DNA of 46,180 nt, from the NCBI GenBank assembly GCA_045047305.1, contig JASFYO010000035.1, positions 1-46,180 of the forward strand, given 5' to 3'. Within the stretch, counting starts at the first letter, position 1; every line of letters begins with the position of its first letter. Shown here one piece after another: positions 8,050-36,891 of the stretch. The translations under genes were made by a program, and so were the position numbers. Under the pieces are notes generated by a model. The model saw nothing but the letters and a program-made list of their open reading frames with translations. It did no database searches and had not been told where the DNA came from. The DNA comes from Planctomycetota bacterium (lineage in GTDB: Bacteria; Planctomycetota; UBA1135).

Positions 8050-8051
8050 TC

Positions 8052-15194: not shown

Positions 15195-15818
15195 CTACAT
15201 TTCGCCGTTCGCCTTCCGCATCGCGCGACGCAAGCGAGTCACCGCGTTGGAGTGGATCTGACTAACCCGAGACTCGGTCAGGCCAAGCTTGGCGCCAATC
15301 TCACGCATCTTCATTTCGTCGCGGTAGTAAAGCGACATCACGATGCGCATTTTGTCGGGCAGAGCGTCAATTTCACGATACAGAACATCGTGCATATCGG
15401 AGCTCTCGGACTCCACATCGGGAGATTTGGCTGCCAGGCTCTCATGCCCGTCCTCATCAGTAGGGATTCCGACCATAGAAGGAGCCTCTTCCCCACTCTT
15501 GCGCGCACGATCGCGCATGGAACGAGGAAGAAAATCCAGACGGCGCAGATCATCAAGGATCGAGCCGCGAATACGGTGGTAGGCATAGGTTTTAAAGCCT
15601 GCACCGCGTGTTGGGTCATAGGACCGGGCTGCGCGCATGAGGCCATACATGCCAGCAGCAAAGAGTTCGTCTTCGGATACGCTTACCGGCAGACGCGCCT
15701 TAATACGGTTGACGACGTACCAGACGAGGTGGCGCCACTGATCAATCTCGGCCTCGTACTTGGAGATAGGGACTCCGTCGGAGGTGTGAGTTGGATTTGA
15801 TGGAGGTTGAATTGACAT
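15195..15818 (-). CDS. fliA: FliA/WhiG-family RNA polymerase sigma factor (sigma28-like), short form lacking most of region 3
   Basis: DELFAAGMYGL...YDPTRGAGFKTYAYHRIRGSILDDLRRLDFLPRS; sigma4 LYYRDEMKMREIGAKLGLTESRVSQIHSNAV. Likely ATG at 15818 after AGGAG. Confidence 0.9.
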   Translation of the reverse strand: MSIQPPSNPTHTSDGVPISKYEAEIDQWRHLVWYVVNRIKARLPVSVSEDELFAAGMYGLMRAARSYDPTRGAGFKTYAYHRIRGSILDDLRRLDFLPRSMRDRARKSGEEAPSMVGIPTDEDGHESLAAKSPDVESESSDMHDVLYREIDALPDKMRIVMSLYYRDEMKMREIGAKLGLTESRVSQIHSNAVTRLRRAMRKANGEM

Positions 15819-15855
15819 CGGGATGGTGCTCCTGTGAAGGTTGCTCGAAAGACCT

Positions 15856-15893
15856 ATCGGCAAGGATGTCGCATTTAGTTCAATAGGAAATCG
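15856..15893 (-). promoter_or_regulatory. 38-bp motif upstream of fliA, shared with the pilM upstream region
   Basis: Minus strand CGATTTCCTATTgAActaaAtGCGacatCcTTGCCGAT; 27/38 ungapped identity to 19646-19683. Confidence 0.7.
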
Positions 15894-15965
15894 GTTTTCT
15901 TTATCGTGATTCAAATAAACTAGTTACGTCGCCTATTCGTGGAGGCATACCTCCGCATTATCCCC

Positions 15966-15993
15966 TTAGCGGACACCCTTCGTCAGAACTCAA
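15966..15993 (-). promoter_or_regulatory. Putative sigma28-type promoter for fliA (autoregulation)
   Basis: Minus strand TTGAGTTC-N12-TCCGCTAA(GGGG); resembles TAAAGTTT-N11-GCCGATAA and the three copies in the pilus cluster. Confidence 0.55.
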
Positions 15994-16108
15994 GCCCCCT
16001 TCTGGGTAGAAATTCGCTTCCGAAGTCGCCACACTGCCATCCTGGACCGCAGGCGGCGTTCCCCGACGTCGGCCTGCCCCCGCTAATTCCGCATCCTGAA
16101 AGGCAATC

Positions 16109-17758
16109 GTGGCAAAAAAGGCACACCTAACCGCTGAACAAATGGCCGGCGCACAGCGCGAAATCTCGGTTTCCGAGTTTTTCGCCAAGAACCGGCACCT
16201 GCTCGGCTTCGATAATCCGCGCAAATCCCTCCTCACCACCATCAAGGAGGCGGTCGACAATTCGCTCGACGCTTGTGAGGAAGCTGGCATCCTTCCCGAG
16301 ATCTTGGTCGAAATTGACCAGTTAGAGGAGGACCGGTTCCGCGTGGCGATTGAAGACAATGGACCTGGAATTGTCAAAGCGCAGATTCCGAACATCTTTG
16401 GCAAGCTGCTTTACGGCTCCAAATTTCACAGCCGACGGCAATCGCGCGGGCAGCAGGGCATCGGCATTTCGGCCGCTGGTTTATATGGCCAAATGACTTG
16501 CGGCAAAGGTCCACGCATTTGGTCGAAGACTACGCGCGGCAAGATGCATCAGTTTGAGATGCAGATGGACCTGACCAAAAACAAAGCGCTCATCACTAAG
16601 GATGAAGAGCACACCGAGTGGCATAGAAAGCACGGCACTCGTTTTGAGATTGATATTGAGGCCACTTATCAGCGCGGTTTGCGTTCGGTGGATGATTACA
16701 TCAAGCAAACGGCGGTATCGAATCCCCACGCGATGATTCGTTATCGCGCTCCAGGCATGACCGAGGAGCATATTTATGAACGCGTGGTCACCGATGTCCC
16801 CGACCTCGCGGAAGAGATTAAGCCACACCCTTATGGTGTGGAGCTCGGGGAGCTGATGAAGATGTTGCGCAACACCAACTCCCGCTGGTTAAGCAGCTTC
16901 CTGCAGGAGGAGTTCTGTCGGGTAGGACCGAAGGTTGCTAAGGACATCATCAAAACCGCCAAACTTGGCGAACGTTCTTATCCGAGTCGGATTGCACGAG
17001 AAGAAGCCAACAATCTCTTCCGCGCGATTCAGAAAACCAAGATTTCGTCGCCTCCTACCACCTGCCTTTCTCCGATTGGCGAGGACCGGATTAGGGAAGG
17101 GCTCATGAAAGAGTGCGATGCGGATTTCTACGCGGTCAGTACCCGTCCGCCGTCAGTTTATCGCGGCAACCCCTTTCAGATTGAAGTGGGTATCGCTTGG
17201 GGGAAACCAGGTGGAGATCAGCTGGAAGTCGATGAGAAAGGGCGGATTGAGAAAAAGAAACGCAAGCGCACTACTGATACCGAAGACTTGCTCGGTAACG
17301 CAGATGACCCAGTGCGGGTGCTGCGTTTTGCCAACCGCGTGCCTTTACTATTCCAGCAGTCCGGCTGTGGATTTACCAAATCCGTCATGCAGACCTCATG
17401 GAAGAACTATGGCCTCAGCCAGTCAAAGAGCTCCTTGCCGATTGGCTCGGCGGTCATCCTAATTCACATGGCAAGTGTGTGGGTTCCGTTTACATCGGAG
17501 GCGAAGGAGGCGATTGCGCCTTACCCTGAAATCCTGAAGGAGGTCAAGTTGGCCTTGCAGGAAGCTGGACGCAAACTTGGCGTACACATTCGTCGCGGTA
17601 AAAAAGTGGCCTCGGAGTTTCAGAAGCGGAGTTACATCGAAAAGTACTTGCCGCATGTGGGGATTGGCTTGCAGGAAATCCTCGGCTTAAGTGTGGAAGA
17701 TCGTGAAGAGGTCGTCGAAACCTTGCGCGACACCATGGAAACCTCGCGTAAGATTTAG
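16109..17758 (+). CDS. top6B: DNA topoisomerase VI subunit B
   Basis: [52 protein letters not shown] (GHKL ATPase), [28 protein letters not shown]. Confidence 0.96.
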
Positions 17759-17765
17759 GAGTTGA

Positions 17766-18992
17766 ATGATGGCAGCTAAGAAAAAAGTAGTGAAAAAGAA
17801 GGCGGCTAAGAAAAGCGCTAGCAAGACCGTCGTCGCCAAGAAAGGCGTCAAGCGCACGGTTGGGCCAGCAGAAAAAAAAGGCAAGAAGGATTTGAAGTCG
17901 GTTGCTTTGCAGTCGATTCAAGAAGTCGCCACCGATGTCTACCGTGTAGCCAGCAATGGCAACCTGCCGGACATGACCATGCCACAGCGCAACTTGGCAA
18001 ACGTGACTTACGACCCCAAACAAGGCTATTTCGAGCTGAAAGGCAATATGAAGACCCGAACTTTGGATGTCAATTCGGTTAAAACCTTCGCGCAAACGCT
18101 ACGGCTGATGTCGTTGGCTAAAGACATGGTCGGTGACGATGACTTCGCCACCAAACGAGAGGCTTACTACGTTTCCAAAAACTGGGGGGATGCCAAGTTC
18201 AACGAGCAACGTGAATCAGATACGGTTCTGGATGACATTGAAGGCATGTTCTCGGTCAAAGACGTCACCCGCGAGATTCTGCGCTTTGTGCCGGAAGAGC
18301 ATGGTGGTTCGGTAGTAGGCGCTTTAACGGTCATCGACCGCGACCCCGAAACGGGAGAAGCCATCCGCTCCGATTGTGCGGCGATGGGATCTGGCGCCTA
18401 CACCGTGCCAAGTTCAGTCGACCATCTCGGCTTTGAAACTACTGCCGACTTCGTACTCGCGATTGAGACTGGCGGTATGTTTCAGCGCCTTAACCACCAC
18501 CGCTACTGGCGCACCGCCAATTGCATTTTGGTGGAAATGGGAGGCGTCCCCACCCGTGCCACCCGCCGCTTCGTGCGACGCATCGCGGAAGGTCTCAAAT
18601 TGCCAGTCTACGCCTTTGTCGACTGCGATCCTTACGGCATCTGCAACATTTACCGCACTCTGAAGGTGGGCTCGGGCCAAGCTGCACACGTCAACAAGAC
18701 CTTTTGCGTTCCTACCGCGCACTATCTGGGTGTGACGCCGCAGGACATCATCGATTTCGGGCTGGAAGATGCTACTCACCCGCTGCTCCCGGTCGACATC
18801 AAGCGCGCCAAAGATGCACTGAAGAACGATCCATTCTTCCAATCCTACCCCAGGTGGAAAGCTGCACTAAAGCAAATGCTGAAGATGGGAGTGCGTGCCG
18901 AGCAGCAAGCTTTCGCCAAGTGGGGACTCAATTTCGTGATTGAGGAGTACCTACCGGTGAAAATGAAGCAAGCTAAAAAGTTTTTGCCTTAA
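17766..18992 (+). CDS. top6A: DNA topoisomerase VI subunit A (Spo11-like)
   Basis: TKREAYY (catalytic Tyr), F-x-EQRESD, TOPRIM motifs IETGGMF and DCDPYG, AEQQA; Lys/Ala-rich N-terminal tail. Confidence 0.95.
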   Translation: MMAAKKKVVKKKAAKKSASKTVVAKKGVKRTVGPAEKKGKKDLKSVALQSIQEVATDVYRVASNGNLPDMTMPQRNLANVTYDPKQGYFELKGNMKTRTLDVNSVKTFAQTLRLMSLAKDMVGDDDFATKREAYYVSKNWGDAKFNEQRESDTVLDDIEGMFSVKDVTREILRFVPEEHGGSVVGALTVIDRDPETGEAIRSDCAAMGSGAYTVPSSVDHLGFETTADFVLAIETGGMFQRLNHHRYWRTANCILVEMGGVPTRATRRFVRRIAEGLKLPVYAFVDCDPYGICNIYRTLKVGSGQAAHVNKTFCVPTAHYLGVTPQDIIDFGLEDATHPLLPVDIKRAKDALKNDPFFQSYPRWKAALKQMLKMGVRAEQQAFAKWGLNFVIEEYLPVKMKQAKKFLP

Positions 18993-18997
18993 TCTAT

Positions 18998-19024
18998 TTT
19001 AGGATTCCGGATAGAGGCCGTTAA
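18998..19024 (+). promoter_or_regulatory. Putative sigma28-type promoter for the pilin gene
   Basis: TTTAGGAT-N11-GCCGTTAA(GGGT), in the 64-bp gap before the pilin. Confidence 0.7.
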
Positions 19025-19056
19025 GGGTCATGGAGATTTCGATTCTCCGTTGACCC

Positions 19057-19563
19057 ATGAAATCTACCCACCGGAAACAAGCTGGATTTACCCTGATGGA
19101 AATCGCCATCACGGCTAGCATTCTCTTAATGCTGGCTGGAATGGCAATTCCAGCTTTTGCAGACACGATTGATGACGCCGAAGTCGCATCCGCCCAGTCC
19201 ATGCTGGCGCGCGTCCGCACTGGCGTCGACTTTTACAGCCTTCAGCACCGTGACGACTTCCCGGGTGGCTCCAGTGGCACCTGGTCAGCAAGCATTTTCG
19301 AGAATCAACTGCGCCAAGCAAGTGATATTGATGGCGCTACCGCCGCACAAGGGACTTCTGGATATCCCTTCGGCCCTTATCTCACCGAACTAATTCCAGC
19401 GAATCCGTTTAATCAGCTGAACACCGTGATGGTGATCCAACCAGGTGGCAGCTTTTCTGCACCGGATGACAGCACTGGGTGGGTTTATTGGGCCGATACC
19501 GGGGCTTTCAAGATTAACTGTTCGGAGGCCGCTCCAAATGGCGAAGCCATCTTCGACCTGTGA
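19057..19563 (+). CDS. Type IV pilin / GspG-like protein (probable major pilin)
   Basis: Class III signal peptide KQAG|FTLMEIAI with Glu5; FGPYL..IPANPFN motif. Confidence 0.88.
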   Translation: MKSTHRKQAGFTLMEIAITASILLMLAGMAIPAFADTIDDAEVASAQSMLARVRTGVDFYSLQHRDDFPGGSSGTWSASIFENQLRQASDIDGATAAQGTSGYPFGPYLTELIPANPFNQLNTVMVIQPGGSFSAPDDSTGWVYWADTGAFKINCSEAAPNGEAIFDL

Positions 19564-19645
19564 TCGATCCCTACGAAGAACGACCTCTCCAGGCCTTATG
19601 GGCCCTGCTTGCTTTCATCACAGGATGCATCGCCTGGATCTAAAG

Positions 19646-19683
19646 CGATTTCCTATTAAAGCCGAAGCGCATCCTTTGCCGAT
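19646..19683 (+). promoter_or_regulatory. 38-bp motif upstream of the pilM operon, shared with the fliA upstream region
   Basis: CGATTTCCTATTaAAgccgAaGCGcatcCtTTGCCGAT; same 12-bp 5' box, same spacing and same TTGCCGAT as 15856-15893. Confidence 0.7.
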
Positions 19684-19686
19684 GAA

Positions 19687-20805
19687 ATGGCGATTCCTCG
19701 GAACACTACCTTGAAACTCGTCACACGACATTCGCCGATTGCCCTGCACTTTGGCGCCCTGGACACCCGCCTCCTCCAACTGAATGGAGGGCCTGGAGGT
19801 TGGTCCGTACGCGCCGCCGAAGTGCTTGAAGGTACCGGAGGGGCACGTCACACAGCCGCTGTAGAAGCATTGACCCCGCGCCTGAAAGGCCTCAAGCTTC
19901 GCGGCAAAGATTGCTTAGTCAGCCTCACAGGAGATGAGGTCGCTGTGTCTTTAGTTCCGGTCGACCCGCATAATCGTGGCCGCATGAACCAAACCTTGAA
20001 GGAAACCGCAATGCGTTCCATTCAAGATCCCGAGGGCGTGATTTACCGCTACATGCCCCTTTCCGGTCCGGACGAAGAAGCCGCCGAGAATGCACGCGAA
20101 GAACTTCTGCTACTCGCGCTTGGCCAGTCAGAAATGCGGCGCTGTTTGACCGCGGTCGATGCCTTGCGCATGCGTGCAGTCAGTCTGGAAGTCTCAGCCT
20201 TCCCACTCGCACGCACCATGGCTGCAACGCAGCCTGGAATGGAAGCTCCCTGGGGATTCCTCCACCTTGGCTTTGGGCATTCCATTTTCGGCATCGTGCA
20301 ACGCGGTGAACTGCGCTTCTTGAAGCCCATGCAGTTGAATGGTGAGCGCCTGCTTAACACTTTGGAGAAAGCGCTCAATCGCTTCAACCAACCGGACCCT
20401 GCAGCGCTTAGTGAACTTCTCATGGCTACCGACGCACCTGCAGAAGAGCCTCATCGCTTGGTCAATGGCAAGGTGCTGCAGACTGTGACTGAAAACGCAG
20501 TGGGGCATGCAGCGGAACTGGTCCATGCACTACGCATGGAAGCAGAAGCTCTTGCCCAAGAAGTCCGCGCCTGTTTACGCCACTTCGCCAACCGTCACCG
20601 TGGTGCAAAGTTAGCCCACGTGCAAATCGCAGGCATGGGTGCCAAGCTTCCGGAAGTAGAAACTGCGCTAGGTAATGCACTCAGTCTGCCAACGCAGATT
20701 GCCGAGCCATTCACAGCTCTCGGCATCACCGCTCCGCAGCATGTGCTCGAAGAACAGCACCTCTGGTGCATCCCTCTCGGGCTTGCGATGCGAGGTTACG
20801 CATGA
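19687..20805 (+). CDS. pilM: PilM-like pilus assembly protein (actin-like fold)
   Basis: SPIALHFG, FLHLGFGHS, EVRACLRHF, IAGMGAKL and C-terminal PLGLAMRG; first gene of an M-N-O-P-Q block. An alternative TTG start at 19711 is plausible. Confidence 0.8.
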   Translation: MAIPRNTTLKLVTRHSPIALHFGALDTRLLQLNGGPGGWSVRAAEVLEGTGGARHTAAVEALTPRLKGLKLRGKDCLVSLTGDEVAVSLVPVDPHNRGRMNQTLKETAMRSIQDPEGVIYRYMPLSGPDEEAAENAREELLLLALGQSEMRRCLTAVDALRMRAVSLEVSAFPLARTMAATQPGMEAPWGFLHLGFGHSIFGIVQRGELRFLKPMQLNGERLLNTLEKALNRFNQPDPAALSELLMATDAPAEEPHRLVNGKVLQTVTENAVGHAAELVHALRMEAEALAQEVRACLRHFANRHRGAKLAHVQIAGMGAKLPEVETALGNALSLPTQIAEPFTALGITAPQHVLEEQHLWCIPLGLAMRGYA

Positions 20806-21425
20806 GAACTGCCGATTTTTTACCCGTCGAAGCCTTTCAGGCCCACCTCGAAAGGCGCCGCACACCACGGCGACTCGGGATTCTAAGCCTCGTTCTAGTC
20901 ATCTGTCTGGTTCTCGGCCTAGGCGTCAGCCTCGAGGCCCAACACCAACAGGCCGCTGCTGAACTAGCAGAAGCCCCCAACGCCATCGAGACCCAAGCTG
21001 GCCAAGAGCTGGAATCCTTGTACAAGGAAATGAACCAATACGTTGCACGCCTGGATCCATTATCGGACCACTTACGTATGCCGGCAGTAGGTTCGATCCT
21101 AGCCGAACTCGCGAGTGCGGTTGGTGAATATGTGCAGATTGAAAGGATTGAATGGGCACATGACATCCGCCGCAAAGGCATCAACAAGGTGGAATCTGCT
21201 GAAATTCACCTGGTGATTACCGCACTTGTGCGCGGCGACGACAACCTGATTCAACTTCCGGCGCGGCTTCGCGAGTACACCGGCTTCGATCGTGCTTGGA
21301 TCGGCGAGAACACCGAATTGATTACGGATATGAGCGACACAGTGCGCGCGACCATCCACCTCAGCTCTCCACTTCTTCTTCCCGGATTCGATAAACCAAC
21401 CATGCATAAGGAGAACACGAAATGA
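20802..21425 (+). CDS. pilN: PilN-like protein
   Basis: Start MRTADFLP (variant of the INLLP motif) via ATGA overlap; single TM followed by coiled coil. Confidence 0.7.
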   Translation: MRTADFLPVEAFQAHLERRRTPRRLGILSLVLVICLVLGLGVSLEAQHQQAAAELAEAPNAIETQAGQELESLYKEMNQYVARLDPLSDHLRMPAVGSILAELASAVGEYVQIERIEWAHDIRRKGINKVESAEIHLVITALVRGDDNLIQLPARLREYTGFDRAWIGENTELITDMSDTVRATIHLSSPLLLPGFDKPTMHKENTK

Positions 21426-21991
21426 GATTGTCTCCATACCGCCTGGCCTTCTTCGCCGGCTTCCTGCTCATCCCTGGAGCCATCTGGGGCATGCAAGTGA
21501 AACCGACCATGGAAGAACGAGTTAGCTTTGTACAACGCCAAGAGAACGCCAAAACGGTGCAGGCCAAGAACAAATTACTGCCGACGCAGCGTGATTCACT
21601 AAATGAAACCTGGAGTGAATTCCACCCCATTGCAGACAAGGCCTTGGCCAACCTTGCAAACGACCTCAACCCTCACCTCGTGCAAAAGCGTTTATACGAC
21701 ACTGCGGAAGAGTTGAATTGCACTTTGCGCATCCAACCTAAATCCTTCCTTGAAGGTGACAAAGCGGTTCGGTTTCTAATCTCTGGAGAAGGAAGCTATC
21801 CCGATCTGGTCAAACTTGTCGACCGCCTTGAACAGGGTCAACACTTTGTGCGCTTTGAAAAATTGCGTTTCACCATGCCATCCGAGGATTACTCCCGGAG
21901 CGGCTCCGGTGCTGTCCGCATTGTTGGAGTGGTCCAAATCCCGTTGATGCCCGAAGGCTTACTCAACCCAGAGGAGACCCAAAATGGGTAG
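21422..21991 (+). CDS. pilO: PilO-like protein
   Basis: ATGA overlap; N-terminal TM, coiled coil, GEGSYPDLVKLVDRLE motif. Confidence 0.72.
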   Translation: MRLSPYRLAFFAGFLLIPGAIWGMQVKPTMEERVSFVQRQENAKTVQAKNKLLPTQRDSLNETWSEFHPIADKALANLANDLNPHLVQKRLYDTAEELNCTLRIQPKSFLEGDKAVRFLISGEGSYPDLVKLVDRLEQGQHFVRFEKLRFTMPSEDYSRSGSGAVRIVGVVQIPLMPEGLLNPEETQNG

Positions 21992-22652
21992 TCAACTCAA
22001 CAAAGCGCAAGAGAAAGCACAAAAGAAGAAGGTGATCATCCTGGCGGTCATGGTGCTTGGTACCGGCGCAACCTGGTCGAAAACCCTGTTTGGTAAAGAT
22101 GACAAACCGGCTGCAGCCGCGGCACCAACTGCTGCTACGACCACAAGTGCCACTGGGACTCCTACGGCATCAGCTGCGGCTTCCCTCACTAGCTCCATCG
22201 GCAGCTATGAACAAGCTGTCCAGCGCATGGAACTTTGGCCCAAGGCTCTCAATCGCCAAGTGCACCTTGGAACCATCGAGGAATTGACTCCGATTAACGA
22301 TCTGCTTAGCAACAAGGCAGAAGAGATCGAGAAAGAAGAAAATACGGAAGAACTTCCTGGGTTCTTGGGAGCAGAAATCCTGCCCCCCCTCGAAGACGAG
22401 AGTGTCGATTTTGATGCTCTACGCCTGCGTTTGACCACGACTGCGCGTCTTGGCAAGAGCACCTATGCGGTCATCAGCAATGAGAGGGTCAAGCCTGGCC
22501 AGACAGTCGAGGTTCAGGTTGATGGCAAAACCGTCCGATATGAAGTTAGAGCCATCGGCACGCGGATGGTGGAGATTGCTTTTCGAGGCACCACCCACAT
22601 TTTGCGCATCGATCTCCCCGACCTTCAGCGTCGGGATCAAGACGGAGCCTGA
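21984..22652 (+). CDS. PilP/GspC-like bitopic pilus accessory protein
   Basis: Lies between pilO and the secretin; TM, Ala/Thr linker and C-terminal LRLTTT...YAVISNERVKPGQ beta domain. Confidence 0.55.
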   Translation: MGSQLNKAQEKAQKKKVIILAVMVLGTGATWSKTLFGKDDKPAAAAAPTAATTTSATGTPTASAAASLTSSIGSYEQAVQRMELWPKALNRQVHLGTIEELTPINDLLSNKAEEIEKEENTEELPGFLGAEILPPLEDESVDFDALRLRLTTTARLGKSTYAVISNERVKPGQTVEVQVDGKTVRYEVRAIGTRMVEIAFRGTTHILRIDLPDLQRRDQDGA

Positions 22653-22655
22653 TTC

Positions 22656-25468: not shown

Positions 25469-25505
25469 GCCCTAGCCTAAGTTTCATTCCGACCGCAAAC
25501 CATCA

Positions 25506-27449
25506 GTGGCTCAGATCGAACCTACAACAAACCTCGCATTACCCGCGGTCCTTAACCGGTCGCGGGCGGAAGACTTGACCGATCTTTGGGATACGGTTCA
25601 AGACGAGGGAATCACCGAGATTGACGGCGGCGCCGTGATTACGGTGGATTCGTCTGGGCTTGCATTGCTGCTTGACGGCTTACGTCGTGCAAAGTTCGGC
25701 GATCACCCCGTCACAATTTTGAATCCGACGCCTCCACTCATGGCGGCACGTCGCGCATTCAATCTCTATGACTTGATGCTGTTCCCCGAAAACGTCGAGG
25801 ATGTCATCCTTGAAGCCGAGCTCGGCATGCGTCTCGGAGAAGTACTCATTGAGTTTGGATACTTGACTCAAGAGGCTCTTGATAGTGCAGTCAAACTGGC
25901 TGATGAACGACCTGACACTTATCTAGGGCAGGTGTTGGTAGAAGAGAATCACATCACCGAGGAGCAGTTAGCGCGTTCCTTAGCGATGCAACATGGCCTG
26001 CCCTACGTCGACCCATTGGCCGAAGGCGTATTGGATGTTTCACTCGAGTGTGAGGTCCCATTTGCGGAACTCCGTGTCCATGGGATTCTGCCATATCTAC
26101 GTTTAGGCGATACCCTAGCGGTTTCGCTCAAGGATCCGGCAGATGTCTATGCAGCAGACGTGGTACGGAAATACACCGGCATGTCGGTGATTACTACAGT
26201 CGCCACCCCCGCTGCCATCCACTCCGGATTGGACCAGATTCAGCGCGCCGTTGCTGCCAGTGGAACTGGAGAAACCACCATCGACGAGGAGTCGGTAAGT
26301 GCCGAGGAGCGTTTCAATGAGATTGTCATCAATGCCATCATTGAAGGTGCTTCCGACATTCACATTGAGCCCAACCCAGACTATTACATGTTGCGTTACC
26401 GGGTTGACGGCCGCCTCCATGAAGTCACCCGACTCAACCCGCAAATCGGGCATTCCTTAGTCGCCCGCATTAAGGTAGTCGCTGGCTGTGACATCTCAGA
26501 AAAGCGCTTGCCTCAAGATGGGCGGATTCACTATCAAGACCGCACCCGCGACGTCGACCTTCGTGTCAATACACTTCCAACCGTGAATGGCGAGAAGGCG
26601 GTGATGCGAATTCTTGATCGCACATCAACCGCGCTTGCCCTAAATAAACTTGGGCTCACCGGCACCAGCAGTGCGTGGCTGGATGAGGCCGTCCACCTAC
26701 CTCACGGCATGGTTTTGGTCACTGGCCCAACCGGTTCAGGAAAAACTACCACGCTTTACAGCGTCTTAGATGAAATTGTAAATCCAGAAACTAATGTTTC
26801 TACAGTTGAGAACCCTGTGGAGCGTGCCGTTAAGGGAGTTAATCAGACGCAAATCAACGAGAAGGCGGGTTTGAAATTCGATGTTTGCCTTCGCGCCCTC
26901 CTGCGTCAAGACCCTGACGTCATCATGATTGGTGAAATTCGAGACCACGAGACCGCAGAAATCGCGATTGAGGCAGCCTTAACCGGCCACCTGGTTCTTG
27001 CTACTTTACACACCAATGATGCTCCAGGCGCCGCCTCCCGCCTGATTCAAATGGGAATGGAGCCTTTCCTTGTCGCTGCAACCTTGCGCTGTGTGGTTGC
27101 ACAACGACTGGTACGACGCCTATGCGATTCGTGCAAAAAGCCAGTCGAATATCCAGCCGAAGTGATTCAGCAATATCAAGAATTTGGCCTCAATGGAGAT
27201 CAACACTTTTCCGCTGCTGGTTGCCCATCTTGTCGCCAGACCGGATACGACGGACGCCGCGGCATCTTTGAGGTAATGAAAGTCACTGACGACCTTCAGG
27301 ACCTCATCGCAACCAACCCATCGTCCGCAGAGATTCGACGCCTTGCACTCAAGGAAGGCATGTCGAGTTTACTGGTGGACGGCATTGACCGCACCAACCG
27401 TGGTGTCACCACTTTGGAAGAAGCCATCCGCGCCGGAGGTAAATCATGA
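25506..27449 (+). CDS. pilB: PilB/GspE assembly ATPase with N-terminal STAS and MshEN domains
   Basis: STAS-like VITVDSSGLALLL; MshEN-like RLGEVLIEFGYL...YLGQVLVEENHI...LAMQ; ASDIHIEP, RLPQDGR, Walker A GPTGSGKTT, LRQDPDVIMIGEIRD, TLHTN, and Zn motif CDSC...CPSC. Confidence 0.95.
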   Translation: MAQIEPTTNLALPAVLNRSRAEDLTDLWDTVQDEGITEIDGGAVITVDSSGLALLLDGLRRAKFGDHPVTILNPTPPLMAARRAFNLYDLMLFPENVEDVILEAELGMRLGEVLIEFGYLTQEALDSAVKLADERPDTYLGQVLVEENHITEEQLARSLAMQHGLPYVDPLAEGVLDVSLECEVPFAELRVHGILPYLRLGDTLAVSLKDPADVYAADVVRKYTGMSVITTVATPAAIHSGLDQIQRAVAASGTGETTIDEESVSAEERFNEIVINAIIEGASDIHIEPNPDYYMLRYRVDGRLHEVTRLNPQIGHSLVARIKVVAGCDISEKRLPQDGRIHYQDRTRDVDLRVNTLPTVNGEKAVMRILDRTSTALALNKLGLTGTSSAWLDEAVHLPHGMVLVTGPTGSGKTTTLYSVLDEIVNPETNVSTVENPVERAVKGVNQTQINEKAGLKFDVCLRALLRQDPDVIMIGEIRDHETAEIAIEAALTGHLVLATLHTNDAPGAASRLIQMGMEPFLVAATLRCVVAQRLVRRLCDSCKKPVEYPAEVIQQYQEFGLNGDQHFSAAGCPSCRQTGYDGRRGIFEVMKVTDDLQDLIATNPSSAEIRRLALKEGMSSLLVDGIDRTNRGVTTLEEAIRAGGKS

Positions 27450-28612
27450 GCCTAGCTACTGCATTTAAGAAGAAAAAATCGACCGAACCCGACATCCAGG
27501 CCTATGGTGGCAGCATTTCTGCACATGACTCAAAAGATGCCGTAGAAATCAATAACGACGCCTTGATTGATCTTCGCATCAAGCTAAAGCCCAAAGAGTC
27601 TCTGCAGGTTTTAATCCAAATGAATGCCATGCTTGAGGCGGGGGTGCCATTGCTTGCTGCTTTGCGTACCTTGATTGAACACGCACAAACTCCCCCATCG
27701 GAGCGCGTGCTGATAAAAATCACCTCCATTGTGGAGGGTGGTCACGACCTCTCTTTCGCCTTTAAGTGTCTCCCCAACTGTTTCCCAAACTACGTCGTAC
27801 ACTTGATTGCTGCGGGTGAACAATCCGGTGCATTAGACGAATCACTTGGGCGCTCCATTGAGCTCCTAGACAACCAAATCACTCTCGGAGCCAAAATTCG
27901 CGGTACCCTGATGTACCCAGGATTCTTGATGTTTATGACTACCGTCATGACTACCGGAATCCTCTACTTCCTGGTTCCAAAGTTTGAAGGCTTGATGATG
28001 AAGAAGCCGGAACTCTTGCCATGGACGACTAAAATCGTGCTGGCCGCTAGCCAATTCCTACGGGCACAACCAGAGTTAGTACTCGCCGGATTCGCCCTCT
28101 TCTTTGCTGCAGCCATATTTGTTGTGAAATCAAAGAAAGCGAGAAGTGCCATGTTCGACGTCATCAGTCACGTACCTGTGATTGGCGACCTAATTTTCAA
28201 GGCCTACCTTTCACGCTCGGTTGGAACTTTGGCACTGACTTTAGAATCAGGCGTGCCGATTCTAACTGGCTTAGAACACGCCCGCCAAGTTGCGCAGCTC
28301 CCACGCCTGCAGGCGCATTGGGAGAAAACCGGAGCCATGGTGCGTGATGGAAAGCCTATGTACACCGCTCTTCAGGGAGAGGACCTTCCACCAGCTTTGA
28401 TCCAAATGATTATTGCCGGCGAATCTTCAGGAACCCTCGACACTAGCTTACGTAAAGCCGCGGTCTTCCTGGACCGTGAAACCGAAGCGGCACTCAACGC
28501 ATTCACCAGTTTACTCGGCCCGGCAACGGTTGTGATTGCCGGTGGCGTAGTCGGATTTATCGTGATTTCGCTGATGACCCCGATCCTCACCATGGCCAAG
28601 TACGTAGGTTAA
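27446..28612 (+). CDS. pilC: PilC/GspF inner-membrane platform protein
   Basis: MLEAGVPLL, AGEQSGAL, LMYP, LESGVPIL and AGESSGTL; two T2SSF domains with TM helices. Confidence 0.93.
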   Translation: MSLATAFKKKKSTEPDIQAYGGSISAHDSKDAVEINNDALIDLRIKLKPKESLQVLIQMNAMLEAGVPLLAALRTLIEHAQTPPSERVLIKITSIVEGGHDLSFAFKCLPNCFPNYVVHLIAAGEQSGALDESLGRSIELLDNQITLGAKIRGTLMYPGFLMFMTTVMTTGILYFLVPKFEGLMMKKPELLPWTTKIVLAASQFLRAQPELVLAGFALFFAAAIFVVKSKKARSAMFDVISHVPVIGDLIFKAYLSRSVGTLALTLESGVPILTGLEHARQVAQLPRLQAHWEKTGAMVRDGKPMYTALQGEDLPPALIQMIIAGESSGTLDTSLRKAAVFLDRETEAALNAFTSLLGPATVVIAGGVVGFIVISLMTPILTMAKYVG

Positions 28613-29037
28613 TGATGAAAACGAAAAAGAAAAATGGATTCACGCTGATCGAAGTTTCGATTGCTGTAGTGCTGATTGTACTGGTTGGCACCTCAGCGAT
28701 TGCATCCCTGCGCGTTGGCATGCGCACGATGAATGGAACGCAATCAGCATCGGAGGCAGCATCGGCAATTCGAGAATTCCGCGAATTTACTTTCCACGAC
28801 ACCATCGACGCCATGGATTTACGCAATGCAACGGTGGTGACTCCCGTCCTCGGCGATGGCACTCCGATGCCAGGCGTCGATGACATGACGCTTGCGATTA
28901 CGGTGCAAGCAGTCGATGACATCGACCCTACTGTGACGGTAGATATTGCGGATTCAAGAACCAGAATTGTCACTGTCGTAGCTACCAGCAATGAAAAAGA
29001 GTTAATGGAGGCACTATGGCTGATCGCAGAGCATTAA
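28612..29037 (+). CDS. Minor pilin (PilV/GspI-like)
   Basis: KKNG|FTLIEVSIAVVLI prepilin motif. Confidence 0.82.
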   Translation: MMKTKKKNGFTLIEVSIAVVLIVLVGTSAIASLRVGMRTMNGTQSASEAASAIREFREFTFHDTIDAMDLRNATVVTPVLGDGTPMPGVDDMTLAITVQAVDDIDPTVTVDIADSRTRIVTVVATSNEKELMEALWLIAEH

Positions 29038-29498
29038 ACCGCGGCATTTCACTTGCGGAAGTTGTGATGGTGGCAGCCATTGGCCTCACTCTTTTCGCTA
29101 TGGCGGTGCCCGCCGCCCAGAACGATGACGTCGCTGGAACGGTAGCAAGAAATATTGTTTCCGATGCGGTGCGTGCTCGTTCCCATGCGCGGCGTAGCTG
29201 GGAAACCGTCACCATGCAGATTGATATCACCAACGAACGTTGGCGCACCTTGAAGCAGGATGGAACCTTCCTTGCCAGTACCGGAATCGATGCTAACGGA
29301 TGGCACAACGCCCCTCCCGGTGTTGATTTTCGTCAGGTCGAAGGCATGCCTACCGACCTCACCTTCCTCCCTAACGGTCGAGCCTCGGAAAGCACCGCCG
29401 TACGCATCCACATCGGAACCAAGCAGTGGGAGATTCGTGTCGACGCCTTGAGCGCGCGCGTGGTTGCAGAGCCTGTTTCAGAAAGTCAAACGCCCTAG
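29016..29498 (+). CDS. Minor pilin (FimT/GspH-like)
   Basis: NRG|ISLAEVVMV prepilin motif; C-terminal LTFLPNGRA typical of FimT/GspH. Confidence 0.82.
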   Translation: MADRRALNRGISLAEVVMVAAIGLTLFAMAVPAAQNDDVAGTVARNIVSDAVRARSHARRSWETVTMQIDITNERWRTLKQDGTFLASTGIDANGWHNAPPGVDFRQVEGMPTDLTFLPNGRASESTAVRIHIGTKQWEIRVDALSARVVAEPVSESQTP

Positions 29499-29507
29499 GT
29501 CATCACC

Positions 29508-30065
29508 ATGAAATTCAAGCACAAAGGCATACTCAAACGCAACTCCGGATTCACCCTCCTGGAGATTATGATTGCAACGACCATCGCCATGGTCCTCCTA
29601 TTTGGCGCACTTTACAGCACCAGTGAGACTCTCTCCGTAGTGCGCGAAGGCGACACCATGATTCATACCAATGTGCATGCCCGCCGTGCCTTGGACCGGA
29701 TTCTAAAGGACTTCCGCTACTCCTCGGCTCTTACCGTAAACGGTGATGCCGTGAATGGCTGGAGTCTTGTCACCACCACCACCGGAACCTTAGATCCAGG
29801 CGAATTGACCTACACCTGGGACCCTACTTCAAAGGCCTTAGTCGTGTCCAACGGCGCCGACGCACAAACCGTTTTGGATGACCTCCGCGTGTTTAACGTG
29901 GTGACGGAGACCGCTGATATTAATGGTACGAACTCGATTACTCGCATCAAATTGGAATGGATTTTGGGCTTGGATTCCGGATCCGAAACCGGAGCAGGCA
30001 CTTTGGACGCAGCCCGTACCTTTGAATTAGCTGGAGCAACCTGGATCCGGAGAAATGATGTGTGA
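29508..30065 (+). CDS. Minor pilin (PilW/GspJ-like)
   Basis: NSG|FTLLEIMIA prepilin motif; ARRALDRILKDFR helix. Confidence 0.82.
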   Translation: MKFKHKGILKRNSGFTLLEIMIATTIAMVLLFGALYSTSETLSVVREGDTMIHTNVHARRALDRILKDFRYSSALTVNGDAVNGWSLVTTTTGTLDPGELTYTWDPTSKALVVSNGADAQTVLDDLRVFNVVTETADINGTNSITRIKLEWILGLDSGSETGAGTLDAARTFELAGATWIRRNDV

Positions 30066-31542
30066 TCCGCCGCTTTTGTCTTCAAGGCAAAGAGGGTCTG
30101 TCCTATTGATGACCCTCCTGGTAACGGGGTTAATGGCAACCATGGCATTATCCTTTGCCTCCTCCATGGGTACCCAAATCCAAATCGCGCGCGACCAAGC
30201 TGCAACTCTCCACGCCGACTTGGCTGCGCAATCCGGTTTGGAATATGCGCAACGACGCTTGCTCATCGACCCCCTCTGGGATGGCACTTTCAACGGTCCA
30301 CTGCTCTATGCCGAAGGCACCACTTTCACCATCGTGCGCAAGGCAGGCAAAGCATCTGTCATCATGCCCTCCGAAGTTTCTCTTATCGTCGAGGGAAACC
30401 AATCCGCATCTCGTGCGCGCTTTGAGACGATGCTTTATGTGAATCCAGGCGACCCCCTGCTAGACAAAGCGGTTTCGATTTTGGGCAATGTTACCGGGTC
30501 AAATATTAAAATTGACGGCGACTACCTCATTTTGGATGCCAAAGGTTGGCTGTGGGACTTCCGTATTGATCTCATCCCTGAAGTACAAACCGACCCTCGA
30601 TTGACGCGTACCGAGAAAAGGGATGTACAAGTCAAATTAGATGCCCTGGCCGTCACCGAAAAAGGAAACACTGCGGAAGTAAGTGAACACTTGGATGACC
30701 ACGGTGAACAAGGTCATAGTGACATTTCCGGAGTCATGGAATCCGTTTCTGTGAAGGACTCCGGAGAAAAAGTTAGTAGCTCTGTGACCGCATCCATTGA
30801 AGAACTATTACTCCATATTCGCAAGACCAATTACCTGATTGAAGGTGTATGGGCGCGTAGTGCCAAAGGTGAGGAAACCTTTATTGCTCTCGATCGCCTC
30901 GATGCACCAGGGGCCCTCCACAACTTCAGTCAAACCCTTTACTCCTGGGCAGAAAAGCAGATTCAGGAGAAGCAACCGGTACATGCACCTGGATGGGATT
31001 TCAGCGACTACTTGATACCCCATTCAAAAATTCGAATCTTTGATCACATTACCCAAGTCCAAGATTTAGACATCGAAGAGACCGCGATATTTTTATTGAA
31101 TGAGGGTGATCAACTCAATCTCAAAAATGTCCACTTCCACGGTGGCCTAGTGGTTTGGGTAGAAAATGAATACGACTACACCGGGGCGCCCAGAAATCCA
31201 GTACTCCTTTCAGGATCCAACTCCTTCGGCGGCGGCAGCGGTGGCTTAAACAATATCGGCATTTTGGCGCCCGGCAGTAGCTTAGAGGTAGAAAAACTAG
31301 GGGCTGCCCCTAACCTAATCGAGGGATACAGCGTCATCCATTCGCTAACCAAGGTGCGCCGCCTACAGCACCTCGGCGTTTTGATTATTCTCAACTCCGC
31401 CACCGATGTTTTTGACTCAAGTTTCACTTTCGATCCAGTGATTTCGGCATCACCTCCAGAAAGCATTCTCTTTTTTGGAGATCTACCTGGAGTACGCGTA
31501 GCGCAAGTGATTGAGTCATTTGACGCATTACCTGCGCTTTAA
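30055..31542 (+). CDS. PilX/GspK-like large minor pilin, paralog 1
   Basis: QRG|SVLLMTLLV (no Glu5, as in PilX); AAQSGLEYAQRRL. Confidence 0.78.
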   Translation: MMCDPPLLSSRQRGSVLLMTLLVTGLMATMALSFASSMGTQIQIARDQAATLHADLAAQSGLEYAQRRLLIDPLWDGTFNGPLLYAEGTTFTIVRKAGKASVIMPSEVSLIVEGNQSASRARFETMLYVNPGDPLLDKAVSILGNVTGSNIKIDGDYLILDAKGWLWDFRIDLIPEVQTDPRLTRTEKRDVQVKLDALAVTEKGNTAEVSEHLDDHGEQGHSDISGVMESVSVKDSGEKVSSSVTASIEELLLHIRKTNYLIEGVWARSAKGEETFIALDRLDAPGALHNFSQTLYSWAEKQIQEKQPVHAPGWDFSDYLIPHSKIRIFDHITQVQDLDIEETAIFLLNEGDQLNLKNVHFHGGLVVWVENEYDYTGAPRNPVLLSGSNSFGGGSGGLNNIGILAPGSSLEVEKLGAAPNLIEGYSVIHSLTKVRRLQHLGVLIILNSATDVFDSSFTFDPVISASPPESILFFGDLPGVRVAQVIESFDALPAL

Positions 31543-31559
31543 TAAATTTCCTTCCCTTT

Positions 31560-31591
31560 GGGTCGGCGGCTTCGGTCGTCGGCCCTTTTTT
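31560..31591 (+). terminator. Rho-independent terminator ending the pilM-pilX1 operon
   Basis: GGGTCGGCGGC-TTCG-GTCGTCGGCCC 11-bp stem (with G:U pairs), cUUCGg loop, then TTTTTT. Confidence 0.88.
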
Positions 31592-31592
31592 G

Positions 31593-31619
31593 TTTAGTCC
31601 CCCGTTTCGCGTCCGTTAA
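31593..31619 (+). promoter_or_regulatory. Putative sigma28-type promoter for PilX paralog 2
   Basis: TTTAGTCC-N11-TCCGTTAA(GGGT), immediately after the terminator; shares CCGTTAAGGGT exactly with the pilin promoter. Confidence 0.72.
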
Positions 31620-31643
31620 GGGTGAAATCGTCATTTTCTAAAA

Positions 31644-33197
31644 ATGAAACAATCACCCAGAACTCGAAATAAAGCGTCAAAGGGCTCCGTCCTTTTGCTC
31701 GTGATTCTAGTGACCAGCCTACTCGCGGCGGTCTCAGCATCCTTCTATTCCAGCGTAGAATCCACCATCATGGTTACCCGCGGCGACATCGGATCCATCT
31801 CTGCCGAGTTTGCAGCAGAGTCTGGCTTGGAATACGCACAACGAAGAATCATGATGGACCCAACCTGGAGCGGCACGGGGGCAAACGGATTCACCTTCCC
31901 TGACGGGGAAACGTCCTTCGTGATTAGCGCGACTTATGATGGCTCCTACAGCAAGAATGACGACGATGATGATGGTGATGATGACGTGTATGACGACGAT
32001 GATGACGGCGACGGCGACAACGGCGACGATGACCACGATGGCGACCACAGCGATGGCGACCACAACGGTGATGACGGCGGCGACCATGACGATGGCGGTG
32101 ATCATGACGATGGCGGTGACCATGATGATGGCGGTGACCATGATGACGATGACCACGATGGCGACCACAGCGGTGATGACGATGGTGGCCATGACGACGG
32201 CGGCGACCATGATGATGGCGGTGATCATGATGATGGCGGTGATCATGACGACGGCGGCGACCATGACGATGGCGGCGATGATGGAGTCTGGTTTGTTCAC
32301 ACTCTCGAGATTTCTGGGAGCAAAGGCGACGCTCGGTCCCAGATTGGAAGTGCCATCAATGTGTTCACTGGCGAAGGCGGGAAAGCTAACTACGCACTAA
32401 TATTCCTCGGCGACGACTTTGCAATGAACGCTGGTTCCATCCAGGGCGATGCCTTGATTACTGACCTTGGGAACCGAGCCAAAGATTGGATTATCAATTC
32501 CGATGGAGATGGAGCATTCTCGAATGGCGATTCCAATAAAAAGGGAGACATCAGCTTTCAAAACTCTGGCGTTGATGGAAATCTTTACCACTACTCCAAC
32601 TCAAAGGAACTCCAGGGCCTTGGCGAAGAAATCGTTCTCACCGATCGGGCGAAAACTCCAACCTACGCAATGGATGCCTTTTCCAGTCCAGGTCCGGGAA
32701 AAACCATCTTTACCAACGTCACCGAACTAACCGGACTTTATTTAGAAAACACTGCCGTAGTTCAACTAAGCCACGGTGAAAACCTGGTTCTCACCAACTG
32801 CACTTTGAATGGAGGGTTAGTCGTCCTGGTACCAAACGGCACGGATCTCAGAGATGGCCCGCGCAACTCGATTGAGTTGAATGGCCTAACTTCCATTGGC
32901 GGCGGAGACGGAGGCGCAGAAGCAAACATTGGCCTACTCGCTCCTGGCTGCAGCTTGAGAGTGGATCAAACTGGGGCAACCATCACCGGCTTTAGTTACT
33001 TAAACCAGATTGATTCGGCCTGGCTCACTGACTTTACTGGCCAGCTTGTAGTCTTAAACAAGATCCAGGATTTCAATGACAGCAATGTTGTTTTTGATGC
33101 GAACATCGCGGCGAATCTCCCAAGCAGCATTAGCCTGGACGGAGCGCGGGGCCACACTGACGTGCTTGAGGTGTTCGAAGATTTCTACACTGAATAG
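31644..33197 (+). CDS. PilX/GspK-like large minor pilin, paralog 2, with Asp/His/Gly-rich insertion
   Basis: SKG|SVLLLVILV; AAESGLEYAQRRI; C-terminus VLEVFEDFY homologous to paralog 3. Confidence 0.78.
   Translation: MKQSPRTRNKASKGSVLLLVILVTSLLAAVSASFYSSVESTIMVTRGDIGSISAEFAAESGLEYAQRRIMMDPTWSGTGANGFTFPDGETSFVISATYDGSYSKNDDDDDGDDDVYDDDDDGDGDNGDDDHDGDHSDGDHNGDDGGDHDDGGDHDDGGDHDDGGDHDDDDHDGDHSGDDDGGHDDGGDHDDGGDHDDGGDHDDGGDHDDGGDDGVWFVHTLEISGSKGDARSQIGSAINVFTGEGGKANYALIFLGDDFAMNAGSIQGDALITDLGNRAKDWIINSDGDGAFSNGDSNKKGDISFQNSGVDGNLYHYSNSKELQGLGEEIVLTDRAKTPTYAMDAFSSPGPGKTIFTNVTELTGLYLENTAVVQLSHGENLVLTNCTLNGGLVVLVPNGTDLRDGPRNSIELNGLTSIGGGDGGAEANIGLLAPGCSLRVDQTGATITGFSYLNQIDSAWLTDFTGQLVVLNKIQDFNDSNVVFDANIAANLPSSISLDGARGHTDVLEVFEDFYTE
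31959..32285 (+). repeat. Coding low-complexity tandem repeat (18-nt units encoding DHDDGG, plus Asp runs)
   Basis: GAYCATGAYGAYGGCGGY units in two blocks; about 109 codons, almost all Asp/Gly/His. Confidence 0.95.
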
Positions 33198-33230
33198 AAA
33201 CGATGAAGGGACACGAGCAAAAGCTATTCC

Positions 33231-33257
33231 TCAAGCTAATGCCCCGTCGTCCGCTAA
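33231..33257 (+). promoter_or_regulatory. Putative sigma28-type promoter for PilX paralog 3
   Basis: TCAAGCTA-N11-TCCGCTAA, followed by AGAGCATGGAG (compare GGGTCATGGAG after the pilin promoter). Confidence 0.72.
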
Positions 33258-33290
33258 AGAGCATGGAGGCTGGTTGCCCTCCATGCTCTT

Positions 33291-34511
33291 ATGCTAATAA
33301 ATCAAAAGAAAAAATCAGGGAATCAAAGAGGTTCAATTCTTCTCCTAGTCATTCTCGTTACTGGACTCCTGGCGACCCTCACGGCAAGCTTTTCCGGGAC
33401 TCTCAATGACCGCATGGACGTGCAGCGCGATGAATCAGCTGCACTACGTGCCGCCTTCGCTGCCGAATCAGGCCTTGAATACGCCCAGCGACGCCTATTG
33501 CTCGATTCGACCTGGAACGGGACGGGCTCGGTTGGGCTTACTTTAAGTGATGGCCTTACTCATTTTGTCATTGCCGCTGCGCCCGACGCAAGCAGCCCCT
33601 ATGGCGATAACGTGCATGTTTTAGCAATTGAGGGCGATTACCAAGAAAGTAAATCACAACTAGGAAGCACTGTTCAAGTGTTCTCAGGCGAGGCCGGGAA
33701 TACCCAACTTACCCTGATTGCCCTTGGCGAGAATTTCAAAATGAAGCATGGCATGGTTTATGGAGACGTTCTAGTTTCTGATAAGGCAAACAAAGTGAAT
33801 GACTGGGTATTCGACGCACAAGGCGTAGGCAGCTATCAACCAGGCGGGGCTGATCTTGATGGAAGTACGATTTTCTTTTGCACTGGAGTGGATGGAACTC
33901 TCTTTAAGTTCGACGGCCTTGGAGGCGATTACCAATGGCTTGGCGACGAGGTTCTAGTCACGGAAAACAGTCAAGCACCTGCGTGGGATTTAGACGATTG
34001 GATCGTCCCAGGTCCGGGAAAAGTCATCTTCAATGGCGTCACCAGCATGAATTGGGAATACTTCGATGAGACTGCAGTTTTCATTCTTGATGCAGGCGAA
34101 AAACTTGTCCTGAATGGTTGCACCTTCGCTGGAGGCCTAGTGGTCTATTGCCCAAAGGATTACGATTTACGCCAAGGTTACCGCAACCTCATCAAGCTAA
34201 AGAACTCCACTTGCGTCGGTGGTGGCGACGGCGGCGTTGAGCCAAACATTGGCATTATTGCTCCTGGTGGCAAACTTGCTAACGATTGGAATAGCAACTG
34301 GATTTGCGGATTCAATTTTGTCAACGAAATCGGACTGCTTCGTTATGCCGAAATCTATGGACAGACCATCGTGCTCAACACGATTAGAAATATGGATGAT
34401 TGTGTCGTTTCGTACTGGGCACCAGCTGCCGAAAACCGCCCAAGCATCATCAACTTCGGCGTGGTTAGCGGATACACCGATATTCTGTCCGTCTTTGAGG
34501 ACTTTAACTAG
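33291..34511 (+). CDS. PilX/GspK-like large minor pilin, paralog 3
   Basis: QRG|SILLLVILV; AAESGLEYAQRRL; NIGIIAPG; ILSVFEDFN. Confidence 0.78.
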   Translation: MLINQKKKSGNQRGSILLLVILVTGLLATLTASFSGTLNDRMDVQRDESAALRAAFAAESGLEYAQRRLLLDSTWNGTGSVGLTLSDGLTHFVIAAAPDASSPYGDNVHVLAIEGDYQESKSQLGSTVQVFSGEAGNTQLTLIALGENFKMKHGMVYGDVLVSDKANKVNDWVFDAQGVGSYQPGGADLDGSTIFFCTGVDGTLFKFDGLGGDYQWLGDEVLVTENSQAPAWDLDDWIVPGPGKVIFNGVTSMNWEYFDETAVFILDAGEKLVLNGCTFAGGLVVYCPKDYDLRQGYRNLIKLKNSTCVGGGDGGVEPNIGIIAPGGKLANDWNSNWICGFNFVNEIGLLRYAEIYGQTIVLNTIRNMDDCVVSYWAPAAENRPSIINFGVVSGYTDILSVFEDFN

Positions 34512-34589
34512 GACCAATCCCTGACCGCCGGACTTGTGCTTCAAGGCCAGCCCCTACCTTTGAGGGCGGCCTTGCTTTACAATCTGCCC

Positions 34590-36589: not shown

Positions 36590-36891
36590 GCTGGTGGGAA
36601 CAATTCGCCGAGAACGCTAAAAGCCCGATTGCGGTTGTAGGTTTCATCGGACAAGCTGTGTTTTTTATGCGCTTTCTGGTGCAGTGGTTGGCTTCCGAAA
36701 AGCAGCAGAAAAGCGTCATTCCAACCGCCTTTTGGTACTTCAGCATCGGCGGGGGCTTCTTATTACTGCTCTATGGAATCCTAGACCACGATCCCGTCAT
36801 CCTGATTGGTCAATCCACTGGCCTGTTGATTTACCTGCGTAACTTGCACTTTATTCGCCTGCAAAAGCAAAAAGACTTGCCGGAATCGTGA
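36586..36891 (+). CDS. Lipid A biosynthesis N-terminal domain (LAB_N) membrane protein
   Basis: GFIGQAVFFMRFLVQWLASEK..KSVIPTAFWYFSIGGG..LLLYG...DPVILIGQ..G..IYLRNL. Confidence 0.92.
   Translation: MSWWEQFAENAKSPIAVVGFIGQAVFFMRFLVQWLASEKQQKSVIPTAFWYFSIGGGFLLLLYGILDHDPVILIGQSTGLLIYLRNLHFIRLQKQKDLPES

Follow-up and report, generated by a model that had tools for sequence, protein, structure and literature searches.

Two sigma28-type promoter classes in a planctomycete type IV filament cluster match early and late flagellar promoters of relatives and may drive a two-step cascade

A type IV filament (pilus) cluster is encoded on a 46,180-nucleotide (nt) contig of a Planctomycetota bacterium (JASFYO010000035.1 of assembly GCA_045047305.1; the whole stretch is called the window), which is contig C35 within a 2.83-Mb genome of 87.7% completeness. 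Its genes carry two classes of sigma28-type promoter: class A, with a 14-nt spacer, on subunit genes, and class B, with a 16-nt spacer, on the machinery operon. The two classes match the late and early flagellar promoters, respectively, of related families, and on balance they seem to drive a two-step cascade in which the FliA-like factor sigmaX serves the machinery and sigmaS, which follows it, serves the subunits. The promoter level of this model is well supported by sequence comparison; which sigma reads which class we infer. Here sigmaS denotes the sigma factor of the window, sigmaX and sigmaY its unlinked full-length paralogues, and sigmaF the flagellar-operon FliA of relatives; f1 is the host family, and f2, f3, f7, f9 and f10 are other families of the same Planctomycetota order.

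Three class A promoters are found on the forward strand, before the pilin gene (18998-19024, 20.3 bits), PilX-like 2 (31593-31619) and PilX-like 3 (33231-33257), in agreement with a first-pass annotation of this DNA that had given each of these genes a sigma28-type promoter of its own. The pattern TYWAG-N14-KCCGYTAA has only three matches in the genome, all at these subunit promoters; it was derived from the same three sites, so its uniqueness is not an independent test. A held-out fourth class A site precedes the gene for a 177-amino-acid (aa) secreted protein on contig C88 (L131:1255-4021), which is followed by a matrixin-family protease with TIG domains. The gene is present in 44 of 49 genomes, and 18 of its 30 upstream regions score at least 9 bits at 14 nt, vs 27 of 2277 regions in the genome. 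The nearest named look-alikes of the 177-aa protein are TIMP/NTR, and in many relatives its gene and sigmaS are ~8-12 kb apart.

Ahead of the machinery operon lie a 15-nt box (19641-19655) and a class B promoter (box and promoter together 19641-19685, forward strand, 20.0 bits), with the -35 element at 19657-19661, a 16-nt spacer and the -10 element at 19678-19685. The sigmaS promoter (15854-15898, reverse strand) consists of a class-B-type -10 octamer (15854-15861) and two 15-nt boxes (15862-15876 and 15884-15898) set 22 nt apart. Three of its -10 bases are kept in 33, 33 and 32 of 33 relatives, and in 19 of 25 the boxes repeat every 21-23 nt. In the host and in three relatives, a box scoring at least 17 bits directly precedes the pilM -35 element. 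The upstream motif that the annotation had assigned jointly to fliA (sigmaS) and pilM is therefore there, as box and sigma28-type -10 octamer; what did not hold is its standing as a separate, non-sigma28 class, since it is itself sigma28-type with a 16-nt spacer. A sigma28-type promoter of longer spacer at the machinery tier suggests that FliA paralogues act in a cascade. The same motif might be read on the opposite strand as a sigma54 promoter directed towards the topoisomerase VI and pilus genes: reversed, box and -10 give GG-N10-GC, and RpoN is encoded in 5/5 family genomes tested. We consider this highly improbable, because one base of the GG is kept in 26 of 33 relatives vs 32-33 of 33 for the sigma28 core, and because the box is also found alone and inverted.

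The background of such sites is low; among 2277 gene upstream regions, 4 reach 17 bits with class A and 5 with class B. Genome-wide, class B matches are enriched at the 16-nt spacer, with 14 against 11 at 15 nt and 0-5 at other spacers. Of its 24 promoter-positioned matches, 12 lie ahead of genes for pili or signalling. Besides pilM, these are a pilin paralogue, a chemoreceptor and a chemosensory operon, an HD-domain protein, two Ser/Thr kinases and five hybrid kinases. The chemosensory operon is Wsp-like and lies on contig C19 (L121:4433-14910) with a divergent NIT-domain chemoreceptor, a class B site standing before each. A CheW query did not recover it in 48 relatives, so conservation lends its class B sites no support.

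Would one sigma28 factor suffice for both classes, the spacer tuning promoter strength, activator need or the response to supercoiling, with partly redundant paralogues and no ordered cascade? Intermediate 15-nt spacers exist, the pilin promoter changes class between genera, and a topoisomerase VI is encoded within the locus. Furthermore, the spacer of sigma28 promoters reportedly has no conserved length (PMC12784957), and WhiG1 and WhiG2 recognize similar promoters (PMC13595943). Even so, this reading is fairly unlikely, because spacer and -10 element covary (the fifth -10 base is A in 22/22 class B sites and C or T in 15/17 class A sites) and because three diverged paralogues are retained in nearly every genome.

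The likeness to flagellar promoters was scored with one class-neutral matrix, from whose training the flagellin and flgB regions were kept out. Upstream of flagellin genes (50 regions), 14 nt is the best spacer in 18 of the 21 sites of at least 13 bits; upstream of flgB (16 regions, a set that excludes three f2 regions without a site), 16 nt is best in 13 of 15 sites. In genomes scored for both genes, the flgB spacer is the longer one in 11 of 13. The class B matrix gave flagellin sites of 13 bits in 11 of 51 regions at 14 nt and in none at other spacers. Among f7 genomes, 9 of 10 have the flgB site at 16 nt, as do 3 of 5 f9 genomes, and in one f9 and one f3 genome the spacer is 15 nt; f7, f9, f3 and f2 were picked for flgB sampling after two f7 matches had appeared. 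Shuffled f7 flgB regions pass in 2 of 300 cases. The fliC promoter of Pseudomonas aeruginosa has the 14-nt geometry as well (PMC12784957). The late and early flagellar geometries of the order, 14 nt at flagellin and 16 nt at flgB, thus recur in the pilus promoters.

Several observations were made on these flagellar regions. At the flgB loci L366, L369 and L373-L387, considered with the flagellin loci L261-L290, basal-body genes are apparently under a sigma28-type 16-nt promoter. In one genome (L380, G020:C31), two PilB paralogues are encoded ~200 nt upstream of an flgB gene whose promoter has a 15-nt spacer. In f10, flgB is preceded by a gene whose best match in the host genome (E 8e-105) is a sigma54-activator-like gene next to a type II secretion cluster (L134:1224-2795, contig C21). 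An intergenic scan of flagellar clusters was too noisy for use, fliD excepted.

The sigmaS gene (15195-15818, reverse strand) encodes a short FliA-family sigma of 207 aa if translation starts at ATG 15818, which is likelier than TTG 15914. FliA/WhiG proteins are its best NCBIfam, PDB sequence and named fold matches (over domains 2 and 4), the top NCBIfam match being TIGR02479 with 166.9 bits, under the cut-off of 189.6. The earlier reading of a sigma28/FliA gene beside a pilus cluster is thus borne out, PilM, a secretin, a tetratricopeptide repeat (TPR) protein, a PilB-type ATPase, PilC and prepilin-motif proteins having also been identified. What sets sigmaS apart is the lack of domain 3: Pfam finds regions 2 and 4 and no region 3; alignment against the paralogues shows ~45 residues of domain 3 missing and domains 2 and 4 kept; and in the predicted structure residues 115-139 are disordered, with no ordered domain 3. 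PF04539 is missing in all 105 close sigmaS homologues and present in the full-length hits ranked below them. The gene was found in 47 of 49 host-family genomes and, in an order survey, in 40 of 42 genomes inside f1 and 0 of 108 outside. Its linkage to the pilus genes is conserved in relatives: sigmaS, pilin, pilM and PilB share one 20-kb stretch in 15 of 34 loci, the remaining stretches ending before sigmaS, and sigmaS occurs together with pilin in 10 of 20 further loci. Two genomes (G040 and G044) keep sigmaS and lack the pilus cluster, and in a third (G048) the two are apart.

The host genome encodes three FliA-like sigmas, sigmaS and the full-length paralogues sigmaX (contig C71) and sigmaY. 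SigmaX is present in 145 of 151 genomes across the order, and sigmaY in 41 of 42 genomes inside f1. Upstream regions of sigmaX contain no class A or B site at 8 bits (0/30) and show a conserved sigma70-like -10 hexamer, as judged by eye. Flagellated relatives have an additional FliA, sigmaF, downstream of flhA-flhF, which was detected in 0 of 42 f1 genomes at the threshold used. Together with the apparent 16-nt promoter of their basal-body genes, the two FliA paralogues that these relatives seem to have in the flagellar region suggest a two-sigma28 flagellar cascade in the order. SigmaS is nearest to sigmaF by identity and by diagnostic columns (15 shared with sigmaF alone, vs 6 with sigmaX and 4 with sigmaY), and the two group together in three trees with supports of 98/98, 79/47 and 93/96. 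There is thus moderate support for sigmaS being closest to the flagellar-operon FliA.

We infer that sigmaX reads class B and sigmaS reads class A from three lines of evidence: i) the 16-nt class marks flgB in families without sigmaS and so predates it; ii) sigmaS resembles sigmaF; and iii) sigmaS, sigmaX, the STAS-PilB fusion described below and the class A target are all missing together in one genome (G036), where sigmaY is retained. The wiring could instead be opposite, with sigmaS reading the 16-nt class, which would take in its own gene along with machinery and signalling genes, in the manner of an autoregulated extracytoplasmic function (ECF) sigma and sigmaX or sigmaY reading the 14-nt subunit promoters. 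SigmaS lacks domain 3, as ECF sigmas do, adjoins the machinery operon and has a class-B-type promoter, and its orthology to sigmaF is uncertain. The age of the 16-nt class and the diagnostic columns that favour sigmaS as sigmaF speak the other way, and we judge the opposite wiring unlikely. An initial assignment of sigmaX to 14 nt and sigmaS to 16 nt was dropped once sigmaF and the flgB promoters had been found.

In the cascade that we favour, sigmaX, made from a housekeeping-type promoter, would read the 16-nt class, comprising machinery, signalling genes and sigmaS itself. SigmaS would then read the 14-nt class of subunit genes, the result being machinery first and subunits later. A putative regulator would bind the 15-nt box and thereby gate both sigmaS and pilM. 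Because FlgM was not found and sigmaS has no domain 3, transcription delay may set the timing, and assembly could be tuned at PilB, likely via cyclic di-GMP (c-di-GMP).

A number of results weigh against this model. At the promoters, the -35 element of sigmaS is weak, and class A is not enriched genome-wide (12 matches at 14 nt vs 5-19). The terminator scan found no terminator between pilin and pilM, so read-through could blur the tiers. In the flagellar comparison, no site lies directly upstream of flgB in 3/3 f2 loci; 27 of the 29 first flgB loci, mostly from f10, have no directly upstream promoter, most of them following another gene; and no class B site of 14 bits precedes fliO-flhA-sigmaF in the relatives scanned. 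The fliD promoters have 15 nt and a few flagellins 15 or 17 nt, so the separation of the classes is imperfect. The grouping of sigmaS with sigmaF is unstable, alternative placements surviving the approximately unbiased (AU) test with p-AU of 0.375 and 0.226. Within the host family, finally, the split between a short-spacer pilin and a 16-nt pilM is seen in four genera (g1, g5, g12 and g15), and pilin has a 16-nt promoter in 13 genomes of 9 other genera, where pilM is without a site of its own in 11 of 12 scored. The flagellum-like two-tier logic proposed in the first-pass annotation thus stands as far as the geometries go, which match flgB and flagellin, and has to be narrowed for the pilin, which is late in only four genera and machinery-type in nine. 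Some genera with the 16-nt pilin promoter have class A sites on extra PilX copies, which suggests that the late tier is family-wide and that pilin membership in it is lineage-specific.

Judging from gene content, the host family has lost flagella. The flagellin, FlgM and FlhA families have no match in the host genome, so that, for these three families, the annotation's report of no flagellar genes in the window extends to the 87.7%-complete genome, the FlgM part being a weak test. Pfam finds FlgM in 3 of 151 order genomes although 81 have flagellin, and a profile made from three order members finds nothing in the host genome or in the loci of other families, which is likewise a weak test. Flagellin is present in 80 of 108 order genomes outside f1 and in 1 of 42 inside f1; in the set of 49 family genomes it is above the cut-off in one, on a 2.4-kb contig. 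This sole family flagellin (L100, G149:C227) adjoins a flgB-family match on that contig and is possibly contamination.

A broader evolutionary reading, which we hold tentatively and as slightly short of an even chance, is that the order times flagellar assembly with two sigma28 paralogues that differ by 2 nt in preferred spacer; that one family lost the flagellum and shortened its late FliA into a sigma of ECF size that is free of FlgM; and that in this family the two promoter classes were transferred to a type IV filament system, the ATPase of which acquired a STAS domain. If true, a whole developmental cascade has been moved between unrelated appendages and can be traced in promoter sequence, the geometries of flagellar promoters in sister families recurring at the pilus genes of a family without flagella. 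The model predicts two paralogous sigma28 factors that tell promoters apart by spacer length, and it would be the first regulatory model for the flagellar genes of this order. Moreover, a natural FliA without domain 3 offers a test of domain function.

The assembly ATPase (PilB-type, 25506-27449, forward strand) carries the N-terminal STAS domain that had been noticed earlier: residues 10-81 match Pfam STAS_2 above the cut-off, and an MshE-type c-di-GMP motif follows (NF053729, 43.3 bits vs a cut-off of 38). STAS-PilB orthologues (E <= 1e-193) are found in 35 of 43 f1 genomes, three being cut by contig ends, and the PilB matches listed from other families begin only after the STAS region. A search with the STAS region gave 21 proteins, all of PilB length and at least 52% identical. 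Among solved structures the only STAS matches of the domain are to MlaB. MlaB is the partner of an ATPase, and the STAS domain here more probably acts as a regulator of the ATPase than as a sigma checkpoint.

Such a checkpoint had been suggested on the model of the Pseudomonas protein HsbA, which binds FlgM; the STAS domain of PilB would bind an anti-sigma factor in like manner, or the sigma directly. The D-(S/T)-x-G motif is invariant in 32/32 aligned orthologues, the fusion is family-specific as is sigmaS, the genome encodes one SpoIIE-type phosphatase, and dephosphorylated HsbA (PA3347) binds FlgM (PMC8256260). The suggestion fares poorly on the other evidence, the domain being MlaB-like and FlgM not being found by Pfam or by the three-member order profile. 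For HATPase_c_2, the partner-switching kinase family, the genome gives weak matches, located in open frames of 405-897 aa, and no kinase of RsbW size was found. The one other STAS domain of the genome rides on a SulP-like transporter, and G040 and G044 have sigmaS without STAS-PilB. Furthermore, FlgM touches all three sigma domains (PMC12784957), one of which sigmaS lacks. We therefore regard a checkpoint through STAS-PilB as quite unlikely. Five GGDEF matches were found in the host genome.

The remaining features of the cluster are on the forward strand. Topoisomerase VI subunits B and A (16109-18992; Pfam and synteny) lie between sigmaS and pilin family-wide and are divergent from sigmaS, with no terminator before pilin. 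The pilin or major pseudopilin (168 aa, 19057-19563) has an N_methyl motif and a model with a confidence score (pLDDT) of 88, which gives weak structural matches to FimA and to EpsG/PulG both. Its stop codon is overlapped by an unannotated, conserved 27-aa hydrophobic open reading frame (19560-19643), open and similar in 22/22 relatives printed and possibly encoding a small membrane partner of pilin. The machinery operon comprises pilM and pilN/O/P-like genes (19687-22652; PilM identified through Pfam and NCBIfam, the remaining genes from their position alone), with the true pilM start likely at TTG 19711; the secretin and TPR protein (22656-25468, by profile matches); PilB; and pilC, three minor pilins and PilX-like 1 (27446-31542, by profile matches). 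From pilM to PilX-like 1 the genes overlap or are spaced by 37 nt or less. The clear terminator described earlier at the end of the operon (31560-31591) was recovered as the top match of the terminator scan, its hairpin (31560-31585) having 11 pairs and a T run and folding at -20.9 kcal/mol. PilM, secretin, PilB, PilC and prepilin-motif subunits are all present, every match being under its equivalog cut-off. No PilT was found within the cluster; one shorter PilT-like ATPase is encoded on contig C3.

PilX-like 2, with its class A promoter, occupies 31593-33197, and PilX-like 3 with its own occupies 33231-34511, the latter having look-alikes with PilX_N and DUF7305. Compared with PilX-like 3, PilX-like 2 has an insert of Asp/His/Gly-rich tandem repeats (31993-32283), possibly a metal-binding loop. 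Strong hairpins lie right behind the class A promoters of pilin (19025-19056) and PilX-like 3 (33258-33290); the regions fold at -21.5 and -39.0 kcal/mol, and relatives have similar inverted repeats. After PilX-like 3, on the same strand (34536-38483), are a deoxyhypusine synthase-like gene, which is syntenic in many relatives, a glycosyltransferase, a LAB_N protein and a PMT_2 transferase. Elsewhere in the window (5149-11240) are two convergent ECF-type sigma factors, each fused to carboxypeptidase-regulatory-like domains.

Parts of this system have precedents. Sigma28 control of pili is already known (PMC8325347, PMC13595943, PMC5430801), as is a split of machinery and pilin between two sigmas (PMC6495340). 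Literature searches, mostly without subscription journals and without supplements, returned no spacer-coded tiers common to flagellar and pilus regulons, no FliA without domain 3, no STAS-PilB fusion and, for planctomycete FliA, no description of such a system.

The reference point for the tiers is the enteric flagellar class II/III model with FliA and FlgM. As in that hierarchy (PMC12784957), the late sigma gene and the machinery share one promoter class, and in the host genome the filament subunits are on a flagellin-type 14-nt promoter. The differences are that here the early tier too is of sigma28 type, that a pilus is the target, that the late sigma has no domain 3 and that FlgM was not found. 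HsbA (PA3347; PMC8256260) and MlaB share with the STAS domain of PilB the fold motif with a conserved Ser/Thr; unlike the stand-alone HsbA, the domain here is fused to PilB before an MshE-type motif, and no partner-switching kinase was found in the genome. In Bdellovibrio, FliA controls Tad/Flp pilins (PMC5430801), but in a flagellated cell, on a type IVb pilus, with a single sigma and no tiers in the part of the paper available. In Rubrobacter (WhiG-RsiG) and Actinoplanes (FliA, with four paralogues), promoters of flagellar-clade sigmas occur in the type IV pilus cluster and before c-di-GMP enzymes (PMC8325347, PMC13595943). These differ in that one promoter class is described and that control in Rubrobacter is via RsiG and c-di-GMP; neither a domain-3 deletion nor spacer-coded tiers are described in the available parts of those papers. 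The Nostoc punctiforme SigJ/SigC/SigF cascade is alike in logic: pilB-C and pilM-Q need an early sigma, and a later sigma, whose regulon is very small, is needed for the major pilin (PMC6495340). It differs in using cyanobacterial sigmas and a J-box promoter, with sigF lacking the J-box and with no flagellar origin, whereas the cluster described here has FliA-like sigmas and promoters that match the flagellar ones of its relatives.

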